Part shown: positions 8,258-42,728 of the stretch, piece after piece
How the letters are laid out: the number at the start of each line of letters is the position of its first letter
Numbering within the stretch: the first letter of the stretch is position 1
NCBI GenBank assembly: GCA_019704295.1
Contig: AP024596.1
Coordinates: 992,001-1,056,000, forward strand
DNA: 64,000 bases
Direction of reading: 5' to 3'
Source: Sulfolobales archaeon HS-7
GTDB taxonomy: Archaea; Thermoproteota; Thermoprotei_A; Sulfolobales; Sulfolobaceae
Translations under genes and position numbers: made by a program
Notes under the pieces: generated by a model
Seen by the model: only the letters and a program-made list of their open reading frames with translations
Databases searched by the model: none
Told to the model about the DNA's origin: nothing

Positions 8258-8725
8258 ATGGTATTAATTGCCACGATTAGGGTTAGGGGCACAGTTGGAA
8301 TACCTCACGATATCGAAAATACGTTAATTAGACTCCGATTACTAAGGAAGTATTCGGCCATGGTATATCCGGATAAGAAGGAAATAATGGGTATGATAAA
8401 ATACGTATCTGGATACATTACGTGGGGTGAGGTCAATGAGGAAGCTCTATCGAAGTTACTTTTGAGAGCGAGAATGAAAGACAATAGCAGATTCAATGCA
8501 GAGTCGTTACAAAAAGTATTAGGAATGTCTCATGAAGAGCTTATTGATAACTTAATTCAAGGAAAGGTATACCTTCATAAACTAAATAACGCATTTCGTC
8601 TACCAATAGGACTTAGGCCGCCAAAATACGGTTTCAGCGGTAAAATTAACATTCCGTTTAATGCTGGAGGAGAGACAGGATATCGCGGTAATGCAATAAA
8701 TGATTTAATCCTATCAATGACATAA
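8258..8725 (+). CDS. rpl30: 50S ribosomal protein L30 (uL30, archaeal long form)
   Basis: IRVRG, YITWGE, LRPPKYGF, GETGYRGNAINDLI. Confidence 0.96.
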   Translation: MVLIATIRVRGTVGIPHDIENTLIRLRLLRKYSAMVYPDKKEIMGMIKYVSGYITWGEVNEEALSKLLLRARMKDNSRFNAESLQKVLGMSHEELIDNLIQGKVYLHKLNNAFRLPIGLRPPKYGFSGKINIPFNAGGETGYRGNAINDLILSMT

Positions 8726-8740
8726 TGGAGGGGGGAAATT

Positions 8741-9166
8741 ATGGTAGTCAGACACGAGAAGAGGAGTAGGAAGTTAAGGGGAAGTAGAAGGATGGGCTGG
8801 GGATTGCAGAAACAACACAGGAACAGAGGAAAAAGAGGCGGAAGACAGATAGGTATGGACAAAGAGAAATTTTCGTGGACGGTTAAATATGCTATGAACT
8901 GGTATGGAAAAAGAGGATTTGTAAATCCAACAACTAAGGTGGAAAACGCAGTATCATTAAGAAATGTAATTCAAATGATTCTTAGCGGAAAACTCTCTCC
9001 GGAGACTGAGAAAAACGAGAAAGTATATGATCTAATAAAGTCTGGATATGACAAATTACTCGGAGGGGGAAGTCCTCCTTTTCCCATAGTTGTGAAAACG
9101 AAGAAAATAACGGAAAAAGCAAAGAGGGCAATTGAAGAGAAAGGTGGAAAAGTTATTTTATCCTAA
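8741..9166 (+). CDS. rpl15: 50S ribosomal protein L15 (uL15)
   Basis: KRSRKLRGSR.MGWG, YGKRGF, YDKLLGGG, IEEKGGKV. Confidence 0.97.
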   Translation: MVVRHEKRSRKLRGSRRMGWGLQKQHRNRGKRGGRQIGMDKEKFSWTVKYAMNWYGKRGFVNPTTKVENAVSLRNVIQMILSGKLSPETEKNEKVYDLIKSGYDKLLGGGSPPFPIVVKTKKITEKAKRAIEEKGGKVILS

Positions 9167-9192
9167 TTAACTGCTTTTTATGTAGGATATAA

Positions 9193-10578
9193 ATGGCGTC
9201 GTTTGTAGACATCTTGTCAGAATTGGGAACTTATTTGCCAGCTGTGACTAAACCTAAGCAGAAGCCTACTTTAGGGAACAAACTGTTATGGACAGCTATT
9301 GCATTAGCTATATACCTTGTAATGGCCTCAGTCCCGTTGTATGGAGTAACCTCTAGTTCTCTGTTTAGTCAGTTTTTAGCGGAGGAGATAATTTTTGCAT
9401 CTACTGCTGGAACTCTGGCACAACTGGGAATAGGTCCTATAATTACCGCCGGATTAATAATGCAAATCTTAGTTGGCTCTAAGTTACTGGATATGGATCT
9501 CAACTCAGATGAGGATAAAGCGAAGTTCACCACATCACAGAAAGGTTTAGCTTTCATCTTTATATTAGTAGAGTCGTTCTTATTTGGCTACGTACTTACT
9601 CGTAATAGTTCACTAACTATAGGACTAATCGTTGCTGGTCAGCTTATAGTTGCAACGTTTCTTATACTGCTCCTAGATGAGTTGATACAAAAGGGATGGG
9701 GTCTTGGTTCTGGAGTAAGCCTTTTCATACTCGCAGGTGTAGTGAAACTAATATTTTGGGACATGTTCGGAATAACGGCTCAGGCTTCCCAAGATTTACC
9801 CATAGGTTTTTTCCCAACGCTAGTTTCTACCCTCGCTAGTGGCAAAGGAATACTAAACGTGTTCGTAGACTTTACTAAACCTTTCCAGCCTGATTTAGTG
9901 GGACTCGTATCGACAATAGGACTAATTGTTTTACTAGTTTACCTTACAGCGATGAAAATAGAGATTCCTGTAACCACCCAAAGACTAAGAGGGATTAGAA
10001 CTACAATACCGCTTAGTTTTCTTTATGTTAGCAGTATACCAGTGATATTTGTTAGTGTTCTTGCCTCAGATATTGGTCTATTCGGTTCAATAGCGTCTTA
10101 CTTTAATCCTTCTATATCAAGCGTTTTTACCACAATAGAAAACATATTCATTTATCCACCTAACAATATTCCCCATAGTGTTTACGCATTGGTTTTGGAT
10201 CCCCTAGGTGCTCTTGAATATGGTGCAGTATTTATACTGCTGTCTCTTGTGTTCGGCATACTTTGGGTGGATGTAGCAGGATTAGATCCTTCCACGCAAG
10301 CAAGAAATCTGATAGACTCCGGAGTAGAAATTCCTGGAATGCGGGCTAATCCAAAAGTTTTAGAAAACATTTTGGGAAAGTACATATATCCCCTTGCATT
10401 CTTCAGTTCACTTATAGTGGCAGTAATAGCGATATTTGCGACTTACTTAGGAGCTTATGGAACTGGTGTCGGGATATTACTTGCGGTAACAATAGCGCAA
10501 CAATATTACAGTATACTTGCTTATGAGAGATCACTCGAGATGTATCCATTATTAAAACGGTTAATTGGTGAAGAGTAA
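9193..10578 (+). CDS. secY: Preprotein translocase subunit SecY
   Basis: [38 protein letters not shown]; about 10 TM helices. Confidence 0.98.
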
Positions 10579-23619: not shown

Positions 23620-23800
23620 AGTAACAAGATTTGGGATTCCCAGTTATAAAAATGGAGGTTATAAGAAAGGGGAAATTGAGTGAGATATGAAGACATTCTA
23701 TACGACACCTCCCTAAGTTCCAGTTATTATTAAAAAGAACTATTAGAAGACTTTCAATTTCAGTAAAACCTTTCTGATAACTATTCCAAGAAGGTATTAT

Positions 23801-33611: not shown

Positions 33612-33659
33612 ACTCTTTCCCAACGGTTGATTTTTATTGTTTTACGTGCAATACCATTT

Positions 33660-35126
33660 ATGTTAAGGATAAATCATTTCATAAACGGAGAGTTCGTAAT
33701 TCCTCACGGCGAGGATTACAAGGAGAAGCGTTCTCCTAATGACGGAAAAGTGTTAGCGGAGGTTGCCAATGGAGGAAGAGAAGACGCGAAAAGAGGTATT
33801 GACGCAGCATATGAGTCTCATAAGTCATGGTCAAAATTGCCACCTATCAAGAGGGCTGAATACCTTAGCAAATTTCTCGAAATCTATAAGTCAAGCGTGA
33901 ATACATTTCAGGAGTATCTGATAAGAGAGGCCGGTGGAATAAAGAAGAAGGCTTGGGCTGAGACCTTATTCACTGAGAGGTTAATATCCAACGCCATCGA
34001 GGTCGCTAGGCATGTTAATGGTGAGAATATTCCATCAGATAGTGAGGGGCAGTTAAACATAGTTTTTAAGAAACCTAAGGGCGTTACTTCCGTAATAACT
34101 CCATGGAATTACCCACTTTCCATCTCCATCAAGAAGGTTATGCATTCCTTAGCTTTTGGAAATACAGTTGTGTTAAAGACCTCAAGCGAAACGCCAATGA
34201 CGGGGTACTTAATAGCTGACGTTGCACAGAAATCTCTTCCAAAAGGCGTCCTTAATGTGATATTTGGTTCTGGCTCTGTAGTAGGGGATGAGATGGTTAC
34301 TAACAAAAAGGTTTCACATATCACATTCACTGGTGAGACAGTAACGGGAAAGGAAATAGCATCAAAAGCTGGAGGAAATTTAAAAAGCGTAACGTTAGAA
34401 TTAGGAGGGAGTGATCCGCTTATTATAATGGACGACGTGGATATCGATTACGCTACTAGACTAGCTGTTTTTGGAGCGTTCTTTCATCAAGGGCAGATAT
34501 GTACGTCGTCAAAGAGGATCTTAGTTCATGAGAGGATTTACGATAGGTTCGTAAGTCGATTTATGGAAGCGGTTAATAACCTAGTGGTTGGCGATCCTGA
34601 ACTAGAAAACACTGATATTGGTCCCCTCATAAATGAGAGACAAGTTTCGGCGATGCAAGAATTTGTTAAAGATTCTCAGGATCGTGGGGGTAAAATAATA
34701 TCTGGAGGGAAGTTCAAGGAAAACTACTTTTATCCGACGGTAGTCACTGACGTTGACGCGAACTTTAAGATAATGAAGGAGGAGGTTTTCGGACCTGTAA
34801 GACCTGTAGTGCGTTTTTCAACAAAGGAGGAGGCTATTGACATAGCTAATTCTACGGAATATGGACTGTCGGGGGCCGTATTGACTAACAATATTAACAC
34901 TGCCTTATTTTTCGTTGAAAACGTAGAAGCAGGTATGTTCCATGTTAACGATGTAACATTTCTTGAGGAGTCCCACATACCATTTGGAGGGATAAAGAGT
35001 AGTGGATTGGGAAGAGAAGGAGGATTATACTCCGCTAGGGAAACTATGTACGATAAATGGGTTACATTTACTACAAGGACTAAGCGATTTCCAATCCCAG
35101 CTTCACTGAAAGAGAAAACTAATTAA
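33660..35126 (+). CDS. NAD(P)-dependent aldehyde dehydrogenase
   Basis: ITPWNYP, FTGET, LELGG, GQICTS, EEVFGP; ATG 33660 fits TATA spacing (track start 33627). Confidence 0.93.
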   Translation: MLRINHFINGEFVIPHGEDYKEKRSPNDGKVLAEVANGGREDAKRGIDAAYESHKSWSKLPPIKRAEYLSKFLEIYKSSVNTFQEYLIREAGGIKKKAWAETLFTERLISNAIEVARHVNGENIPSDSEGQLNIVFKKPKGVTSVITPWNYPLSISIKKVMHSLAFGNTVVLKTSSETPMTGYLIADVAQKSLPKGVLNVIFGSGSVVGDEMVTNKKVSHITFTGETVTGKEIASKAGGNLKSVTLELGGSDPLIIMDDVDIDYATRLAVFGAFFHQGQICTSSKRILVHERIYDRFVSRFMEAVNNLVVGDPELENTDIGPLINERQVSAMQEFVKDSQDRGGKIISGGKFKENYFYPTVVTDVDANFKIMKEEVFGPVRPVVRFSTKEEAIDIANSTEYGLSGAVLTNNINTALFFVENVEAGMFHVNDVTFLEESHIPFGGIKSSGLGREGGLYSARETMYDKWVTFTTRTKRFPIPASLKEKTN

Positions 35127-35182
35127 TTTCTTTATTTCTATTTTTTAAATATAGTGTTATTTAATTTTATGGAAGTTTTTAT

Positions 35183-35570
35183 CTTAATGGAAGTTAAGGG
35201 CATGAGGAATCATGTGGATGAGTGATCCATCATTTGAACATTTTTTCCCAGGCTGTAAATGTTTGACATAGAGTACCTCTACAGCGATTAAATGAGTTTT
35301 GAGGCCGTAAAAAAGTGCCTAAGAAGTTACCGTGAGATTGGTAAAACCACCTGCTCCGGGCACACGTTAGTAACATTCCATCGGCTCAGGAGTATTACGT
35401 AATGTCAGTCTTAGAAGTAAGGTAAACCTAGCTTTCCACGATTTGTGTTGGAAGCGAGAACGTCGAGAGATCTGACGTTGTCTGTTCAGGTTTCACCTGT
35501 CCTAACTATTGATTAAATCATAGCATCTCACTATTACGCTCTTCCAACGTATTAAACGGTTAGTAATCAG
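35183..35570 (+). pseudogene. Decayed tnpB / IS605 relic
   Basis: TTTTTATCTTAATGG identical to the intact element's left junction; broken frames give VNLAF...DLTLS...FTCPN, matching the TnpB C-terminal Zn-finger region. Confidence 0.55.
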
Positions 35571-36001: not shown

Positions 36002-38032
36002 ATGTCGCGTGCAGCGAGATTTGCGCTATTACTGTTTTCTGTCGTAGAAATTCTAATCGTATTTCTTATACTTAATGCGACTCATTCATTCTATGCGGAG
36101 CTAGAAATAGTTCTGGTTATGACAATAAGTGTTCCGTGTATACTTCTCTCCTTAACTGGATCCCAGTTTCCTGGATTTATTCTTATTGGAGCGATCTCAC
36201 CGATTATATTTGCATATAGTGAACATCTTTATCCAACAAATGCAGGTTATGTCTTAATCGGTTCATCTCTTATATTGATTCTCTCTTGGTTGCTTTATGC
36301 CCTTACCGTTAGAGGTAAGAAAATCAGGAATGCACTAGGAGGCCTCGGTGCGTTATTCTATGTTATTGCTATTCTATATACTCTATTACCATTGCACCTA
36401 TCAGGGTTTACATTGAGTAAACTTATTACTAATTTTGAAACAGGGTATTCGTCACCTCTTGGCTTCGTTCTGCTTATCCTATCATCATCATTCATAGGAT
36501 TTTCAGCTTTTACTACCCCCAATGTTATGAAACTTAGACAGAATGGTCTTCCAAGGAGAGCGGAATGGTCGGTAACAGTAAACGGGGTTAAAAGAAAGAC
36601 TAAGGGTAAGACGATATCTATCAAATACGAGGGAGAAAGCTACTGGGTTGTCGAACCTGTATTTAAGAAAAACGATAAATTCGTACCTTTTCCTCAAAGT
36701 GGGAAAACATTGCCTGGAACCATTAACGTTGAGTTTAGGAAAGCGTATATCGTCGTTTTTAGGCAACAGGGATTGCCTAAAGATGTTCAATGGAGTGTGA
36801 TAGTGAACGGAAGGGCTTGGAGTGGGTACGGGGATATAAACGTAGAGGTTTTTGAGACTAATGCTGAGTATGAAGTTAGACCTTTATCAATAAACGGAAT
36901 GTGGTATCTCCCTAAAGAAAGAATTGGTAAAATACAGGGAGGAAAAACTATTACTGTAAATTTCATGAGAGTAGACTCAGCTCAATCAGTGCCTCAAATT
37001 CCATCATCTTCACAATCATCCCAGACCTCCGTAACGATACCAAGGAGTTTAAGGAACTGGGAACCTTCTGTTTGGATAGGAAGAGAGATAGGGGGTTATA
37101 AAGTAATGGAAGTCATAGGGCGCGGAGGTACATCATATGTACTTAAGGGAACTCTTTCAGGAAGTTTAAGAGCCCTTAAGATCCCTATAATAGGTGAGGG
37201 TGATAAGGAACAGTTAATATTCTCAGAATTGGCATCGGAGTTTAAGAACCTTGACGAACTTTCAAAGAAGACGGAAAACGTAGTTCAGCTCTATGGATTT
37301 GGCGGTGGGACGGATATAATTAGGGCGATAAAGAACGGTAACTTAGAATTATACGCTAACTCCCCCCCATATATTGTTATGGAACTAATGGAAGGCGGAG
37401 ACGCTAAGGGGATATCGGACAATGATGCTATTTTCTACTGGCCTAAATATTATAAAATAGTTCTGATTATAATTCAGAAAATATCTGGAGCTCTAGCTGT
37501 AATTCACGCAAGTAACTACGTTCACATGGACGTTAAACCCCAGAATATATTTTTCAGCAATAAACCTGGTACAACAGCTTCGGAGGTGCTTAACAATCTT
37601 AATAATGGACTAGTCAAGGTGAAACTGGGGGACTTAGGTTCGGCAAGAAGGATTGGAGATAAGATTATTCAATTGACTACAGCCTATTCTCCCCCTGATG
37701 CAATTATCGCTTACTTAAAGAATGAAGGTACTTATCCTGCTATAGATGTTTTTTCCCTAGGAGCTACCGCACTATATCTATTAACTAGACAAGCAGTTTA
37801 CGAGCAGGACACCCTCACTTTACTGAACTTATCGTTAGATAACAAGTCGTTAGATCTCGCAAATAAAGCAGCATACCGCTATTCTGAGTTGTGGAGAAAC
37901 ATGAGCAAACCTGTTAACGTTCCAGATCAGCTGTGGGCATTAGTTAAAGCAATGCTGAACCCATCTCCTAGTATGAGACCTGCAAGCAAGGAAATAGCGT
38001 ACAAACTACTGAGCATCAAGGATACGCTTTAG
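36002..38032 (+). CDS. Membrane-bound Hanks-type Ser/Thr protein kinase
   Basis: About 6 TM helices; two GLP..WSV.VNG repeats; IGRGGTSYV, ALKIP, VMELMEGG, HMDVKPQN, LGDLG, DVFSLG, RP. Confidence 0.93.
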   Translation: MSRAARFALLLFSVVEILIVFLILNATHSFYAELEIVLVMTISVPCILLSLTGSQFPGFILIGAISPIIFAYSEHLYPTNAGYVLIGSSLILILSWLLYALTVRGKKIRNALGGLGALFYVIAILYTLLPLHLSGFTLSKLITNFETGYSSPLGFVLLILSSSFIGFSAFTTPNVMKLRQNGLPRRAEWSVTVNGVKRKTKGKTISIKYEGESYWVVEPVFKKNDKFVPFPQSGKTLPGTINVEFRKAYIVVFRQQGLPKDVQWSVIVNGRAWSGYGDINVEVFETNAEYEVRPLSINGMWYLPKERIGKIQGGKTITVNFMRVDSAQSVPQIPSSSQSSQTSVTIPRSLRNWEPSVWIGREIGGYKVMEVIGRGGTSYVLKGTLSGSLRALKIPIIGEGDKEQLIFSELASEFKNLDELSKKTENVVQLYGFGGGTDIIRAIKNGNLELYANSPPYIVMELMEGGDAKGISDNDAIFYWPKYYKIVLIIIQKISGALAVIHASNYVHMDVKPQNIFFSNKPGTTASEVLNNLNNGLVKVKLGDLGSARRIGDKIIQLTTAYSPPDAIIAYLKNEGTYPAIDVFSLGATALYLLTRQAVYEQDTLTLLNLSLDNKSLDLANKAAYRYSELWRNMSKPVNVPDQLWALVKAMLNPSPSMRPASKEIAYKLLSIKDTL

Positions 38033-39328
38033 GAATTCTCTCATTTTATCAGTTAAACTATCTGGATTCCGTATGGCTTCATTAACCTCTTCGTTATTCA
38101 ATTTGAGTACGTCTATACCAGAAATTTCTATATTTTTTGCATTAGTTATTAAGAATACTTTCTTTACCCGCACCCCATCAACTTCGGTAACCTTAACTAT
38201 CTTCTCTAGATTAGAGGGCGTATTCAAGGTGTCTCCATCAACTATCTTAACTTCCCCGAGATATGCGTCATTTTGAACTCTAAAGTATATGTCGGGAGTT
38301 ACAGTGCCATCATCTGTATCGATTCTCCTTCCCTTAGGGTGAACGTAAGATATTCCCATTTCCTTTGCAATTGATATAAGTGTTTTCCTTACGGATTTTT
38401 CTAATTCCCTTGAAATATCCCGAGGATCTCCCTCTAGTTTAGCAGGAGGAACATTCCTTATCTGTTTCACTTTTTCCTCAAGACTTCTCCTTATCTTATT
38501 CGTATCCGGACCTACTTCATTTATCAAATTAGTGTATATTTCCTTTGCCTTATCTAAGAGCGATGATACGGTCTTCTCCTCTATAAGGATCCTTGCTAAA
38601 ACGTCTGCTAAGTCAGGACAATAATACCTTAGTATGTCCTCCTTTTCCTCCTCCGTTAGATCACCACTTAGATCAACCTTAATTGGCATTTCGATCAGTC
38701 TCCTTTGAATAGCCTTGTCCATTTCCTTACTGGTCTCTTCTATTGGCATTGCCATTACAACTGGCACCTTAGTACCGGAATTCAACAGTCTATGTAATGG
38801 CATTACATGTCCTTCCTTAATTCTGATTTCATCAACAAGCAAGGGTAGAGCTGAGTCACTAAGGAACTCAATAATACCATCTATATCCTTACTGTACTCC
38901 TTGCACGCAATTCTAAGTTCTGCGATATTATGCTCTAAGAGTAGCTTATTACAGTTTTTCTTCAACCACTTTCTAAAATCTCGCGGTAAGGAAAAAAACC
39001 CGTAACCTAACTCCTTTTTCTTCTGATTAAGTCGCATTATCGCTTTCTCCCTTATTGTAAGGATGTCTTGAGACTCCCAAAATACATCCTCAAACCTATC
39101 CTTACCGGAGAGATCAACGTATAATGCACCTCTATCAACGAAGTCGGTATATATCTTTCTGAGTAAAGTGGTCTTCCCCATACCTGGAGGTCCGGTAATT
39201 AGCACGATTCCATTTCTCTCGATTTCTGCCTCTGCTATTTTCAGACCTTGTTCCCACCTTTTACCGACTGGTTTTAATTCCGTGTCGTTCCACGATGTTA
39301 ACGTTCTAGATGGAAAAGTGCAGTTCAA
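38006..39328 (-). CDS. P-loop ATPase with C-terminal PD-(D/E)xK nuclease-like domain
   Basis: Walker A GPPGMGKT, Walker B LLVDE; TPDIYF...LGEVK. Confidence 0.8.
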   Translation of the reverse strand: MNCTFPSRTLTSWNDTELKPVGKRWEQGLKIAEAEIERNGIVLITGPPGMGKTTLLRKIYTDFVDRGALYVDLSGKDRFEDVFWESQDILTIREKAIMRLNQKKKELGYGFFSLPRDFRKWLKKNCNKLLLEHNIAELRIACKEYSKDIDGIIEFLSDSALPLLVDEIRIKEGHVMPLHRLLNSGTKVPVVMAMPIEETSKEMDKAIQRRLIEMPIKVDLSGDLTEEEKEDILRYYCPDLADVLARILIEEKTVSSLLDKAKEIYTNLINEVGPDTNKIRRSLEEKVKQIRNVPPAKLEGDPRDISRELEKSVRKTLISIAKEMGISYVHPKGRRIDTDDGTVTPDIYFRVQNDAYLGEVKIVDGDTLNTPSNLEKIVKVTEVDGVRVKKVFLITNAKNIEISGIDVLKLNNEEVNEAIRNPDSLTDKMREFLKRILDAQ

Positions 39329-39329
39329 A

Positions 39330-39896
39330 CTACCTTCGCCTTATGATACCACAAATAGTTCCGTTAACTAATATTCCTTCCTCTCCTCCCGGAATTAACT
39401 CGTAGTTAGCTTGAACGTAATTGCTCAACTTACTGTAAAATTCCTCTTTGGTAACTCCCATCTGCTCCCTTATTAGCTTTAAATTAGCTACACCTAGAGC
39501 GTTCTTGACCTTGTTATAATATTCGTCGAAGATTTTCTCCATATTGGGAAAATTAACGGGATTTTGAGTTATCTTAAGATATTCTTTGATATACCTAATT
39601 TCCGACATTAACTCCTTCAGCATTTCATTATTCGTTTCCTCAAGCTTTATGACGTAGTCCATCTTATCCTTCTCACGGCTTTGATCAATCTTAGGTGTTC
39701 TTTCTCCAAGTTCTATCAGCTTTACCCTATATGAGTTAGGCGTCTTTTCCTTTATTGCTAATCCTCTAGACGTTATTACCTCAACTATGGCGTCAACGTC
39801 TTCATAGGAAATCTTGAGTAGTTTTTTGATATCTCCCCTAGTTAATTGGTTTTTCTCTTTTAGTTTTCCTATTAATTTATTTACATATTCTTCCAT
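39330..39896 (-). CDS. Putative winged-helix / coiled-coil DNA-binding protein
   Basis: N-terminal [25 protein letters not shown]-like pattern, central coiled coil, C-terminal [18 protein letters not shown]-like segment; ATG overlaps gad end (track start 39914). Confidence 0.7.
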
Positions 39897-41044
39897 GTTC
39901 CCTTGACTACCCACACCGGTTCCTCCATAACATCGAGTTCCTTGGGCTCTACGGCGTACTCCTCTAATTTCTTCTCATTAACTGAAACGCCTAGTCCAGG
40001 TTTAGAGGGAACTTTAACGTGTCCACGTACGACCTCAATCTCTCCATTAATTATTTCCTTTTTCCAATCTGGAAACCAATCATAGAATGATTCTAACATT
40101 AGCAGATTTGGAGTGACAGCACTTATTTGAAGAGATGCAGTGTATTGAATAGGTCCGAACGCATTGTGATATGCGATCTCAAGGTCGTATGCCTCAGTTA
40201 ACGCTACAACCTTTCTCGCAATCGTGAATCCGCCGATGTTTGTTATATCTGGTTGTAAGATATTCACTAATCCTAAGTAAACGGGTATTTCCTTTAATGA
40301 AACCAGTCTCTCTCCCATAGCAATTCTTAGCGACACCTCCTTCCTGTATTTTTCATATCCCTTGATGTCTTCATGATGCACGGGCTCTTCTACGAAGACA
40401 GGATCGTATTTTTCAAGCATTTTCCCTATCATTATTGCAGAATTAGCGTTAAATCTGCCGTGATGTTCAATCATCACGTCCAAGTGATCTTTAACAGCCT
40501 TTACCCTCGCTTCGGCTTCCTTTACCCCCTTAAAGTCGATCCAGTTATAATACATGCCAAACGGGTCGAATTTTGCTGCTTGGTATCCCATTGATGCTAC
40601 ATCATGTGCCTTCTTTCCGAAGGATTCAGGGGTTACGCAATCCTGGTACCATCCATTTGCGTAAACAGGTATTTCATCCCTAACCTTTCCTCCTAACAAC
40701 TTGTATATTGGTGCTCCCAGTTCTTTCCCTAAAAGGTCCCACTCTGCGATGTCTATTGCGCTAAAGGCGGTTACGGTATCAAAAGCTCTGCTGTAGTAAA
40801 AGTCCTGCTTGTACCATTCCTGGTAGTTTTTCTCCACTTCTTCAACTTCCTTTCCTACAAAGGCCTTTGCAACCTGTTTAACTGCATTAGCAACTGTAAT
40901 AACTCTAAGCGTGGGAACCGCCTCACCATATCCTACCTCTCCATTTGACGTTGTGACTTTGACTATAATAGAGGAAGACGCCCATGTTGCACTTCCCTTC
41001 TCTTTATGTGTTAATACTATTGGTTTTATTTCAGAGATCTTCAT
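39881..41044 (-). CDS. gad: Gluconate/galactonate dehydratase (enolase superfamily)
   Basis: [53 protein letters not shown] match Sulfolobus GAD. Confidence 0.92.
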
Positions 41045-41480
41045 GAATAGGATTTAATCATTAAAAATATTTAACTTGATTGTCGGTTTTGGGGTAATTT
41101 AGGGTTCTTTGCGAATTATAATTTATAAGAAAGATGGATGAAATAAAGTAAATTGTTGAGCGTAAATCCCCTACTAGCCATTACGGTTATATTGAATTAA
41201 ATTTGTTATAGTTAATGGAATAAACTAAATTAGCGAAGGAGACGTCAATCGCCCGTTTTCTTCTACAACTCCAGAAGTGGATTCCTCCTTCTTAACAGGA
41301 ATGAGGTGCAAAGAAAGGATCTGAGGCTCCTTTTTCTTAATTTTGCGATTTCAAAGAATTCATAATAGCAAGTACTCGATCTTTCCTAAAGTTATCACTC
41401 TATAATCTCCTAGATCATTCCTCTATATTGGAATGAATTCCACCGATCTGTTTTAAATTGGTAGAGTATATTACACCAAC

Positions 41481-42728
41481 ACGGACATAGAGGTGGCTAA
41501 GCGGATAGAGGCGGACCAGAGGGACGTCCTAGAGGAAAAGTTGTCAAATAACTATGTGAAGAGGGATTTCAGGGGCGACATCTCTAAGTACTTTAGTATT
41601 CCCAACGTCCTAGTCTTACTTGGAATAAGGGGGTCTGGAAAGTCCACTTTGTCCTTAATGCTCATGAAGGATTTAGGGGTTAAGTTTGCATACTTGAACT
41701 TCGATGAAGAGATGCTCTACGGAGTTTCTATCAAGGATCTGAGGAGCTTAACACAGGCAATATATGAAGTTTATGGGACTGACGTGAATTACTTCGTTTT
41801 CGACGAAATCTACAATGTAAAGGGTTGGGAACTCTTTATAACCAGACTAAGGGAGACGAACAGAATAGTTGTAACTGGAAGTAACTCGAGGATGCTATCG
41901 GGGGGGCTCTCAACAGTTCTTACAGGGAGGCACTCGGACCTAGTTCTCTCCCCTTTTTCCTTTAAGGAATATTTGCGTTTTAAGGGGCTCAGCGAAGAGA
42001 TCCCAACTTCCACAAGAAGGGTGGCTGAGGTCAAGATCGAGTTGGGGAAGTACTTGGATACGGGAGGGTTTCCAGAGGCCCTGATGATAGGTAAGCAACA
42101 AGTAGATGTAATATACAACGATATTCTCTTCAAGGACGTAATATTTAGATATAAAATCAGGGAGACGGAGAAGTTTAAAGACTTCTCAAAGAGTCTGATC
42201 TCCTATTACTCGTCCGAGGTATCTTTGTCTAGGCTAGCGAAAACTGTTGAGGTAGACAAGAGGACTATCGATTTATGGTCTTTTGGGCTTGAAAACGCTT
42301 ACTTAACCTATTTCCTTCCTAGGTTCGGGGAGAAACCCAGGGAGAGATTAACTTTCAATAAGAAAGTATACGTAGTTGATCTCGGAATTATGTCGCGTAT
42401 GGCATTAAGGTCTAGGGATGAAGGTAGGATCATGGAGAACGCAGTCTTCCTTAAGTTAGCTAGGGACAACCAGCTGAGGGGACTATCCTACATCAAGGGC
42501 AAGGATTTCGAAGTGGACTTTTACGATGAGGTGAAATCGAGATTGATCCAAGTGACCAGGGCTTCTGATAAAGTGGATGAGAGGGAGATCAGAGGGATCT
42601 TAAAGGCGAAGAGCTTAGTACGAGCCAAAGAGCACTTAATAGTAACTTACGATGTGGAGGGTGTCGAGAGAATAGAAGGGAGGGAGATAAGGATGATACC
42701 CATCTATAAGTTCCTACTCATGAGTTGA
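41481..42728 (+). CDS. Archaeal ATPase, AAA_14 + DUF4143 family
   Basis: GIRGSGKST, FDEI, VTGSNS, LTGRH, GGFPE, KKVYVVD, MENAVF, EVDF. Start is ACG 41481 or GTG 41493. Confidence 0.88.
   Translation, partial: TDIEVAKRIEADQRDVLEEKLSNNYVKRDFRGDISKYFSIPNVLVLLGIRGSGKSTLSLMLMKDLGVKFAYLNFDEEMLYGVSIKDLRSLTQAIYEVYGTDVNYFVFDEIYNVKGWELFITRLRETNRIVVTGSNSRMLSGGLSTVLTGRHSDLVLSPFSFKEYLRFKGLSEEIPTSTRRVAEVKIELGKYLDTGGFPEALMIGKQQVDVIYNDILFKDVIFRYKIRETEKFKDFSKSLISYYSSEVSLSRLAKTVEVDKRTIDLWSFGLENAYLTYFLPRFGEKPRERLTFNKKVYVVDLGIMSRMALRSRDEGRIMENAVFLKLARDNQLRGLSYIKGKDFEVDFYDEVKSRLIQVTRASDKVDEREIRGILKAKSLVRAKEHLIVTYDVEGVERIEGREIRMIPIYKFLLMS

Follow-up and report, generated by a model that had tools for sequence, protein, structure and literature searches.

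The closest described counterparts of the genes considered here are Saci_1228 and Saci_1229 of Sulfolobus acidocaldarius, which have been annotated as a P-loop ATPase and a GntR-type regulator, respectively (PMC6101591). Following ultraviolet (UV) treatment, Saci_1228 went down 4-fold and Saci_1229 2-fold, independently of TFB3, and the same report cited both genes as cell-cycle induced, with a peak at the mitosis/cytokinesis (M/D) stage, and speculated that Saci_1228 is a counterpart of the HrpA helicase (PMC6101591). The pair is already on record as hypothetical cell-cycle-regulated genes that were never characterized and whose domain nature was misjudged. Here we analyze a pair of this type in a 64,000-nt stretch of DNA from the archaeon HS-7 (the window; positions 992001-1056000 of a single 2.15-Mb contig, AP024596.1), a member of the Sulfolobaceae and the sole member of its genus among the genomes compared. 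The reading that we favor, with a probability of roughly 0.6, is that the two genes form a vertically inherited chromosomal operon with a role in a cell-cycle-linked DNA transaction, and that the protein kinase and sugar-acid dehydratase (gad) genes beside them in the window are incidental. For this reading, gene order, conservation, folds, motif states and phylogeny come from the present analysis and expression timing from the literature; from these we infer complex formation, DNA binding, nuclease activity and a cellular role for the pair.

The ATPase copy in S. acidocaldarius DSM 639 is 100% identical to AAY80574.1, and its gene adjoins a 1293-bp photolyase gene. Since Saci_1227 is a 1293-bp photolyase gene (PMC3139894), we identified the S. 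acidocaldarius pair as Saci_1228 (the ATPase) and Saci_1229. Two features of a Saci_1228/1229-type pair, full-length ATPase homology with invariant motifs and an upstream gene for a protein with two winged helix-turn-helix (wHTH) domains, were found in the window; a third, M/D-phase induction with UV repression, is on record for S. acidocaldarius only. The two pairs have in common their family (the small protein of the window belongs to the Saci_1229 family), gene order, ATPase motifs and the C-terminal wHTH motif of the partner, while they differ in their neighbors, which are photolyase and TenA in S. acidocaldarius versus the kinase and gad in the window, and the identity between the two ATPases is ~33%. 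The main texts of the S. islandicus cell-cycle transcriptome and of the TFB2 preprint do not mention the pair.

Gene order and folds of the pair

The features of the locus discussed below, in window coordinates, are as follows.

38006-39328, minus strand: ATPase-nuclease gene (open reading frame, ORF), 440 aa, TTG start
38456-39262, minus strand: AAA+ module of the ATPase, residues 23-291
38009-38443, minus strand: C-terminal PD-(D/E)xK nuclease-fold domain of the ATPase, residues 296-440
39330-39914 (ORF), likely 39330-39896, minus strand: small partner protein (P0003), 188 aa from the ATG at 39896, numbered 7-194
39881-41044, minus strand: gad, enolase-superfamily gluconate/galactonate dehydratase-like (ORF and profile match)
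35996/36002-38032, plus strand: membrane Hanks-type Ser/Thr kinase gene (ORF), a convergent neighbor outside the conserved module
38006-38032, no strand assigned: tail-to-tail overlap of the kinase and ATPase genes, 27 nt, read from the sequence

We compared the window with the 15-kb surroundings of 40 other Sulfolobaceae loci (41 loci in total). In 41/41 loci, a gene for a homolog of the small protein immediately preceded the ATPase gene on its strand, at distances of -26 to +8 nt, which bore out the tight coupling of wHTH and ATPase genes described in an earlier note on this DNA. No other gene family occurred near the pair in more than 11 of the 41 loci, and the immediate downstream neighbors of the ATPase belonged to 30 different families, 20 of these neighbors being convergent and 21 co-directional. 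The real unit is a two-gene operon of a wHTH protein and an AAA+/nuclease protein, which the kinase and gad adjoin in this genome only.

The junctions listed in the earlier note, namely the 27-nt convergent overlap, a 16-nt overlap between the small-gene ATG and the gad stop (39881-39896), and a single nucleotide between the small-gene stop TAG (39330-39332) and the ATPase TTG start at 39328, are all present in the sequence. In the alignment, the TTG start fits the M-x-C N-terminus conserved in ATPase homologs, and agreement with homolog N-termini makes the ATG at 39896 the most likely true start of the small protein.

We modeled the ATPase with AlphaFold, using 22 family members as input (predicted local distance difference test score, pLDDT, 89). 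The AAA+ module of the model contained a large helical insertion (residues 79-160) and a helical lid (226-291), and across the family alignment the Walker A motif GPPGMGKT (46-53), Walker B D166-E167 and the arginine pair R209-R210 were invariant. In VIA-align comparisons of residues 1-300 with solved structures, the best neighbors were MuB, S. solfataricus Cdc6/Orc1, Hda, TnsC and DnaA (Z 13.6-13.1), and the lower-ranked neighbors, at Z 11-12, were BrxC (Z 12.0) and the archaeal ATPases PAB2304 and SSO1545. Foldseek agreed, matching the ATPase to ORC/Cdc6 at E 2e-7. By sequence, the ATPase gave P-loop-level matches only in a search of solved structures, and a word-indexed homolog search returned just the ATPase itself; homologs were therefore gathered by genome and profile searches. 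The fold, made up of a single AAA+ module and a nuclease domain, does not bear out the HrpA-helicase idea for Saci_1228.

For the C-terminal domain, Pfam detected no nuclease family in residues 295-440 alone, so the nuclease fold had to be shown structurally. In the model, residues 296-440 run through a helix (302-319), three strands (336-343, 347-351 and 354-361), a second helix (372-377) and a further strand (386-395), which is the alpha-beta-beta-beta-alpha-beta core of the PD-(D/E)xK superfamily. Among the ten matches listed in an ESM Atlas search with the same residues, one per family set out of the 30 nearest models, nearly all were of restriction-endonuclease type (Mrr_cat, DUF234, Card1_endonuc, NERD and McrC), with TM scores of 0.56-0.67. 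The McrC chain 6hz4_M aligned with ATPase residues 295-438 at Z 10.4 and a root-mean-square deviation of 3.2 A over 131 residues. The PD..(D/E)xK motif that the earlier note had read at this end of the protein accordingly lies in a restriction-endonuclease fold and is complete in the window, where the catalytic set comprises E310 in helix 1, D346 in TPDIYF at the start of strand 2, and E359-V-K361 in GEVK on strand 3. The note had reserved the possibility that the C-terminus might not adopt such a fold, and the McrC match (Z 10.4) answers that reservation. On the strength of the modeled fold and its motif, the domain is predicted to cleave DNA.

The small protein, modeled at pLDDT 87, consists of a wHTH domain (residues 7-66), a 39-residue helix (78-116) and a second wHTH domain (125-193), in line with the double-HTH/coiled-coil protein that had been proposed. 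Its structural neighbors were generic wHTH proteins only: TFE-alpha, AspA, MarR, ScpB, Hop2-Mnd1 and also TrmB. A sequence search of solved structures gave no match. The conserved part of the protein is the C-terminal wHTH, which carries the family motif LGxA..IR...G...EEFY....Y.LI.GG.EG in the alignment. A complex prediction for the ATPase and the small protein scored 0.04 against a mark of 0.32, which speaks neither for nor against binding.

Two further observations concern the ATPase family. Cysteines C3, C126, C142 and C237 are invariant, and C272 and C278 nearly so, across all clades, with C3 lying in a conserved N-terminal segment (M-x-C-x-x-P..TVT.W); they could bind metal or form disulfides. 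Also, two distant Thermoprotei metagenome relatives were called as much longer proteins, P0023 (1217 aa) and P0022 (624 aa), in which residues 24-464 make up the ATPase-nuclease part, with several hundred further residues after it. One member of these long-protein clusters bears the name ABC substrate-binding protein, and the long proteins could be either genuine fusions or gene-calling artefacts.

Distribution, phylogeny and possible roles

Full-length ATPase homologs (E 1e-58 to 1e-71, over residues 2-437) were present in 43/47 Sulfolobaceae genomes, including 40 of the 41 of high quality, often in two copies. A class-level search of 251 genomes found matches only in Sulfolobaceae (37/40) and in a second family, whose genomes are small (4/7), and a profile search of 1.84 billion representative proteins returned just 27 at E <=1e-10. 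No relative was found in the plasmid and phage/virus records searched. On a distant Thermoprotei metagenome contig, a homologous small gene precedes the ATPase gene with an 8-nt overlap, and the ATPase there retains D...DxK.

In a maximum-likelihood tree of the ATPase, rooted on the distant Thermoprotei group, two older paralog clades of patchy distribution had their catalytic residues intact, while a core clade was represented in almost every genus, with each genus monophyletic within it. The single ATPase copy of the window was placed as sister of the core clade, which contains Saci_1228 (ultrafast bootstrap 89). The ATPase motifs, E310, R314, H330 and N396 never varied on the tree. D346, by contrast, was replaced by G or S throughout the core clade except in two copies (one from Saccharolobus and one from the basal genus-g2), the E359 position was variable in that clade (mostly L or I, with D or E in several members), and K361 was replaced by V or F in Saccharolobus. 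The acidic residues were kept in the window gene and in the basal genus-g2 copy, with K361 in the window and R in genus-g2. From these residue states, the nuclease chemistry looks ancestral and largely given up in the core lineage, in which the ATP-driven function persisted. Saci_1228 itself carries G, I and K at the positions of D346, E359 and K361 of the window protein, and is for this reason probably not a nuclease. The motif pattern is compatible with a conserved function driven by ATP for which cleavage is not always required, and the pair is a vertically inherited chromosomal unit, not a mobile defense island. As a side observation, a third ATPase copy in a genus-g3 genome (G006:C5:14749-16057) is broken in two, with an N-terminal part of 101 aa that contains two in-frame TGA codons and a C-terminal frame of 368 aa, and is probably a pseudogene.

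These results bear on the proposal, made for this locus in the earlier note, that it encodes a defense module. In a form without the kinase, this would be a two-gene restriction-like or abortive system in which the wHTH protein detects or binds DNA from outside, with the AAA+ protein assembling on this DNA and the nuclease cutting it. The joining of an ATPase to a PD-(D/E)xK domain does resemble McrBC and other defense ATPase-nucleases, BrxC was among the structural neighbors (Z 12.0), and there were partial PADLOC matches (mad8 at 1.6e-10 and PDC-S73) as well as a Pfam nSTAND3 match above threshold on the P-loop part; the great variability of the neighbors (30 downstream families in 41 loci) and the patchiness of the older paralog clades point the same way. 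The matches to defense models, however, are limited to the generic P-loop residues 29-186, and no methyltransferase or other self-protection gene lies in the scanned neighborhood. The core lineage is near-universal and tracks genera, plasmid or viral copies were not found in the records searched, and most core members have lost catalytic residues while keeping the ATPase motifs invariant. Cell-cycle and UV regulation, as given for the Saci member in PMC6101591, also sits poorly with defense. We consider a defense role for the pair unlikely, and the defense claim of the earlier note weak.

Loss of the nuclease residues in most of the family could also be taken to mean that cleavage is beside the point, the small protein being an ordinary transcription factor, the ATPase a cofactor or anti-activator of its regulon, and the nuclease fold a degenerate DNA- or ligand-binding module. 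The structural matches of the small protein to MarR, TrmB and TFE-like wHTH proteins are in keeping with this, as is the GntR-type annotation of Saci_1229 (PMC6101591). On the other hand, no Pfam transcription-factor family passed its threshold, and the most conserved part of the small protein, the C-terminal wHTH, bears a family-specific motif unlike that of known regulators. The outgroup, the older paralogs and the window genome all keep the catalytic tetrad, an argument for cleavage being ancestral and under continued selection in those lineages. A regulator of this kind is possible for the nuclease-dead lineage, and leaves tetrad retention elsewhere unexplained; for the family as a whole we think it quite improbable.

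Under the reading that we favor, of a vertically inherited operon acting in a cell-cycle-linked DNA transaction, the small protein would bind DNA via its wHTH domains, perhaps dimerizing through the long helix, and would recruit or position the ATPase, which its conserved C-terminal wHTH may engage. The ATPase would then oligomerize on DNA in an ATP-dependent manner, as its structural relatives MuB, TnsC, ORC and DnaA do, and the C-terminal domain would cut DNA where the catalytic residues are kept, as in the window protein, and only grip it in most core members, where D346 and E359 are replaced. Because the reported timing falls at G2/M and expression is repressed after DNA damage, the DNA transaction may be the processing, organizing or separating of sister chromosomes before segregation.

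Several points weigh against this reading. The expression data concern a nuclease-degenerate member of another genus rather than the window gene, and the cell-cycle timing is a secondary citation in PMC6101591. ATPase-nuclease fusions are typical of defense systems, the older paralog clades are patchy and the genomic context is highly variable. In the window, furthermore, the pair seemingly shares one transcription unit with a sugar-acid dehydratase, which would be odd for a cell-cycle gene.

A more specific version of the reading, that the pair is an undescribed chromosome-processing machine of Sulfolobaceae and one related lineage, we put forward tentatively, as a minority possibility. Here, at the G2/M transition, the double-wHTH adaptor would load an oligomer of the ORC/MuB-like AAA+ protein onto DNA, in a job that ancestrally may have included DNA cleavage, for example to remove sister-chromosome linkages. 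The window genome would preserve the ancestral, nuclease-competent, single-copy state, and most other genera would hold a nuclease-dead core copy, some of them with nuclease-active paralogs in addition. The repeated, independent adjacency of Hanks kinases, described below, could in this case reflect phospho-control.

Neighboring genes in the window

The earlier note had described gad, the wHTH gene and the ATPase gene as tightly coupled on the minus strand. This holds for the window sequence and does not extend, as far as gad is concerned, to the other loci, where gad was not found in any of the 40. The best NCBIfam match of gad was bifunctional gluconate/galactonate dehydratase (E 1e-180, 600 bits; equivalog cut-off 750 bits). 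Its gene has a TATA-like ATATTTTTAA box of its own, ~20-27 nt before the gad ATG (41045-41075, minus strand), while no comparable AT-rich or TATA box was seen in the ~60 nt before the small-gene ATG (39897-39960, minus strand), a stretch that lies inside gad. Judging by these upstream sequences, the pair may in this genome be co-transcribed with gad or may have a promoter deeper within gad. Some 450 bp past gad, a divergent gene (41493-42728, plus strand) encodes an ATPase with AAA_14 (7e-29) and DUF4143 (1e-16) matches; it has a nuclease-superfamily-type tail and belongs to the same general architecture class as the ATPase of the pair, with unrelated sequence.

On the other side of the pair, the convergent kinase matched Pfam Pkinase over residues 368-667 (E 2e-26, 93 bits) and has ~6 hydrophobic segments in residues 9-173, two beta-rich internal repeats of ~75 aa each, and complete Hanks motifs (GRGG375, ALK393-395, HMDVKPQN510 and DLG546). 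Its description as a membrane Ser/Thr kinase, with ~6 transmembrane segments and a full Hanks-type catalytic domain, is thus well founded. The earlier note had gone further and made the kinase the third component of a surveillance or defense system, together with the wHTH protein as adaptor and an ATP-gated nuclease, a proposal that it tied to co-location of the genes in other genomes. What speaks for such a system is the 27-nt overlap of the kinase and ATPase coding ends, and the presence of a Hanks kinase directly downstream of the pair in three Metallosphaera species. Kinase adjacency therefore arose at least twice, which by a rough estimate, with ~5-7 such kinases per ~2200 genes, is somewhat above chance. 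Kinases are also described as regulating the Sulfolobales cell cycle (10.1101/2025.05.09.653063).

Neighborhood analysis did not bear the proposal out. A kinase gene lay within 7 kb of the pair in 2/40 other large loci, and on one further Metallosphaera contig; the other 38 neighborhoods were without one. Outside the window, adjacency was confined to the three Metallosphaera species, where the kinase is on the same strand as the ATPase and so in the opposite relative orientation. In one Metallosphaera genome the adjacent kinase ranks only third among the matches to the window kinase (E 4e-46 vs 4e-73), which makes it a different paralog. The genes closest to the window kinase in architecture, frames of ~635 aa that have its N-terminal half in common, were separated from the pair by at least ~50 kb in the 5 genomes checked. 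Co-transcription is impossible for convergent genes, and the overlap itself is ordinary for compact genomes, because unrelated convergent genes overlap the ATPase 3′ end by 4-38 nt in 7 other loci. A remnant of an IS605-like end just upstream of the kinase, moreover, suggests local rearrangement. Taken together, we regard a three-component system as very improbable.

The Metallosphaera kinases are ~495-500 aa long and begin 15-30 nt past the stop of the core-clade ATPase gene (8362-9843, plus strand, in locus L055 and 8360-9868, plus strand, in L073; also in loci L019 and L026); they could represent a lineage-specific operon extension. As for the remnant, the 12-mer TTATCTTAATGG occurs in three copies in the window (at 23797, 27723 and 35179), with 0 expected by chance. 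The copy at 35179 falls in the stretch 35179-35500 (plus strand), between an aldehyde dehydrogenase gene (33627-35126) and the kinase gene; just ~20 nt of the IS605/TnpB-type left end are recognizably shared at this copy, which looks like a remnant and would fit a local rearrangement near the kinase.

Comparison with known systems

Two defense assignments were considered and rejected. For MADS, the PADLOC matches to mad6 (E 4e-34) and mad8 (E 1.6e-10) do not extend beyond the generic kinase domain and the P-loop, the MAD6 equivalog of NCBIfam reached 49.7 bits where the cut-off is 460 bits, and among 12 larger genes scanned across 29.6-46.1 kb none matched a methyltransferase or other MADS-type family. 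For a STAND NTPase, the nSTAND3 match (40 bits) is confined to residues 29-86, corresponding to profile positions 7-64 of 155, and the model has an AAA+ lid followed by a nuclease domain, with no wHTH in place of the helical and winged-helix (HETHS) module of STAND proteins, and has its best neighbors among initiator/MuB-type proteins.

For the eukaryote-like cell cycle of archaea, Sulfolobales serve as the main model, and their machinery for separating sister chromosomes is poorly known. Our analysis gives a structural identity to a family-wide pair, an initiator/MuB-like AAA+ module fused to an McrC-like nuclease with a dedicated double-wHTH partner, and corrects the published guess of an HrpA-like helicase. 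The split of the family into nuclease-competent and nuclease-degenerate lineages also supplies natural controls for experiments.

Among described proteins, those combining Arch_ATPase (PF01637) with DUF234 (PAB2304, 2qen; SSO1545, 2fna) or AAA_14 with DUF4143 likewise join, in one chain, an AAA+ module and a restriction-endonuclease-like or DNA-binding C-terminus. Full-length alignments of the window ATPase to PAB2304 and SSO1545 gave Z 11.8 (residues 4-435) and Z 11.2 (residues 4-437), and DUF234 proteins were among the nearest structures to residues 296-440. By sequence, however, the ATPase falls outside the Arch_ATPase family (Pfam ATPase_2, 20.8 bits versus a cut-off of 33.2), and no DUF234 or DUF4143 match was found, for DUF234 not even to E 1 on residues 295-440. 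The Arch_ATPase-DUF234 and DUF4143 proteins also occur as many paralogs per genome, and no separate double-wHTH partner is known to be needed by them.

Cdc6/Orc1, DnaA, Hda, MuB and TnsC act as ATP-dependent oligomers on DNA. With them the window ATPase shares two features, helices inserted between strand 2 and the Walker B motif and a conserved pair of arginines following sensor 1. It differs from this clade in lacking a fused wHTH or origin-binding domain and any family-level match in sequence, and in the much larger size of its insertion, which runs to ~80 residues with conserved Cys, Trp and Tyr.

The likeness to McrBC lies in the combination of an AAA+ motor with a PD-(D/E)xK nuclease, and in the alignment of the C-terminal domain with McrC. 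In the window, however, a single polypeptide carries both motor and nuclease, the motor belongs to the initiator/MuB type instead of the McrB GTPase type, and the putative DNA reader is the separate wHTH protein; there is no sign of modification-dependent restriction.

Finally, Cran1, an OLD-family ATPase-nickase of Sulfolobales, is reported to be cyclically expressed in Saccharolobus islandicus, where attempts to delete it failed and it serves cell-cycle progression and not virus defense (PMC12796447). Cran1 has an ATPase-nuclease architecture of defense type and is in this respect a functional analogue of the pair, although the folds are unrelated (an ABC-type ATPase and a Toprim nickase) and no wHTH partner gene accompanies it. 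Like Cran1, the pair in the window cautions that an ATPase-nuclease beside a kinase does not alone indicate an antiviral system.

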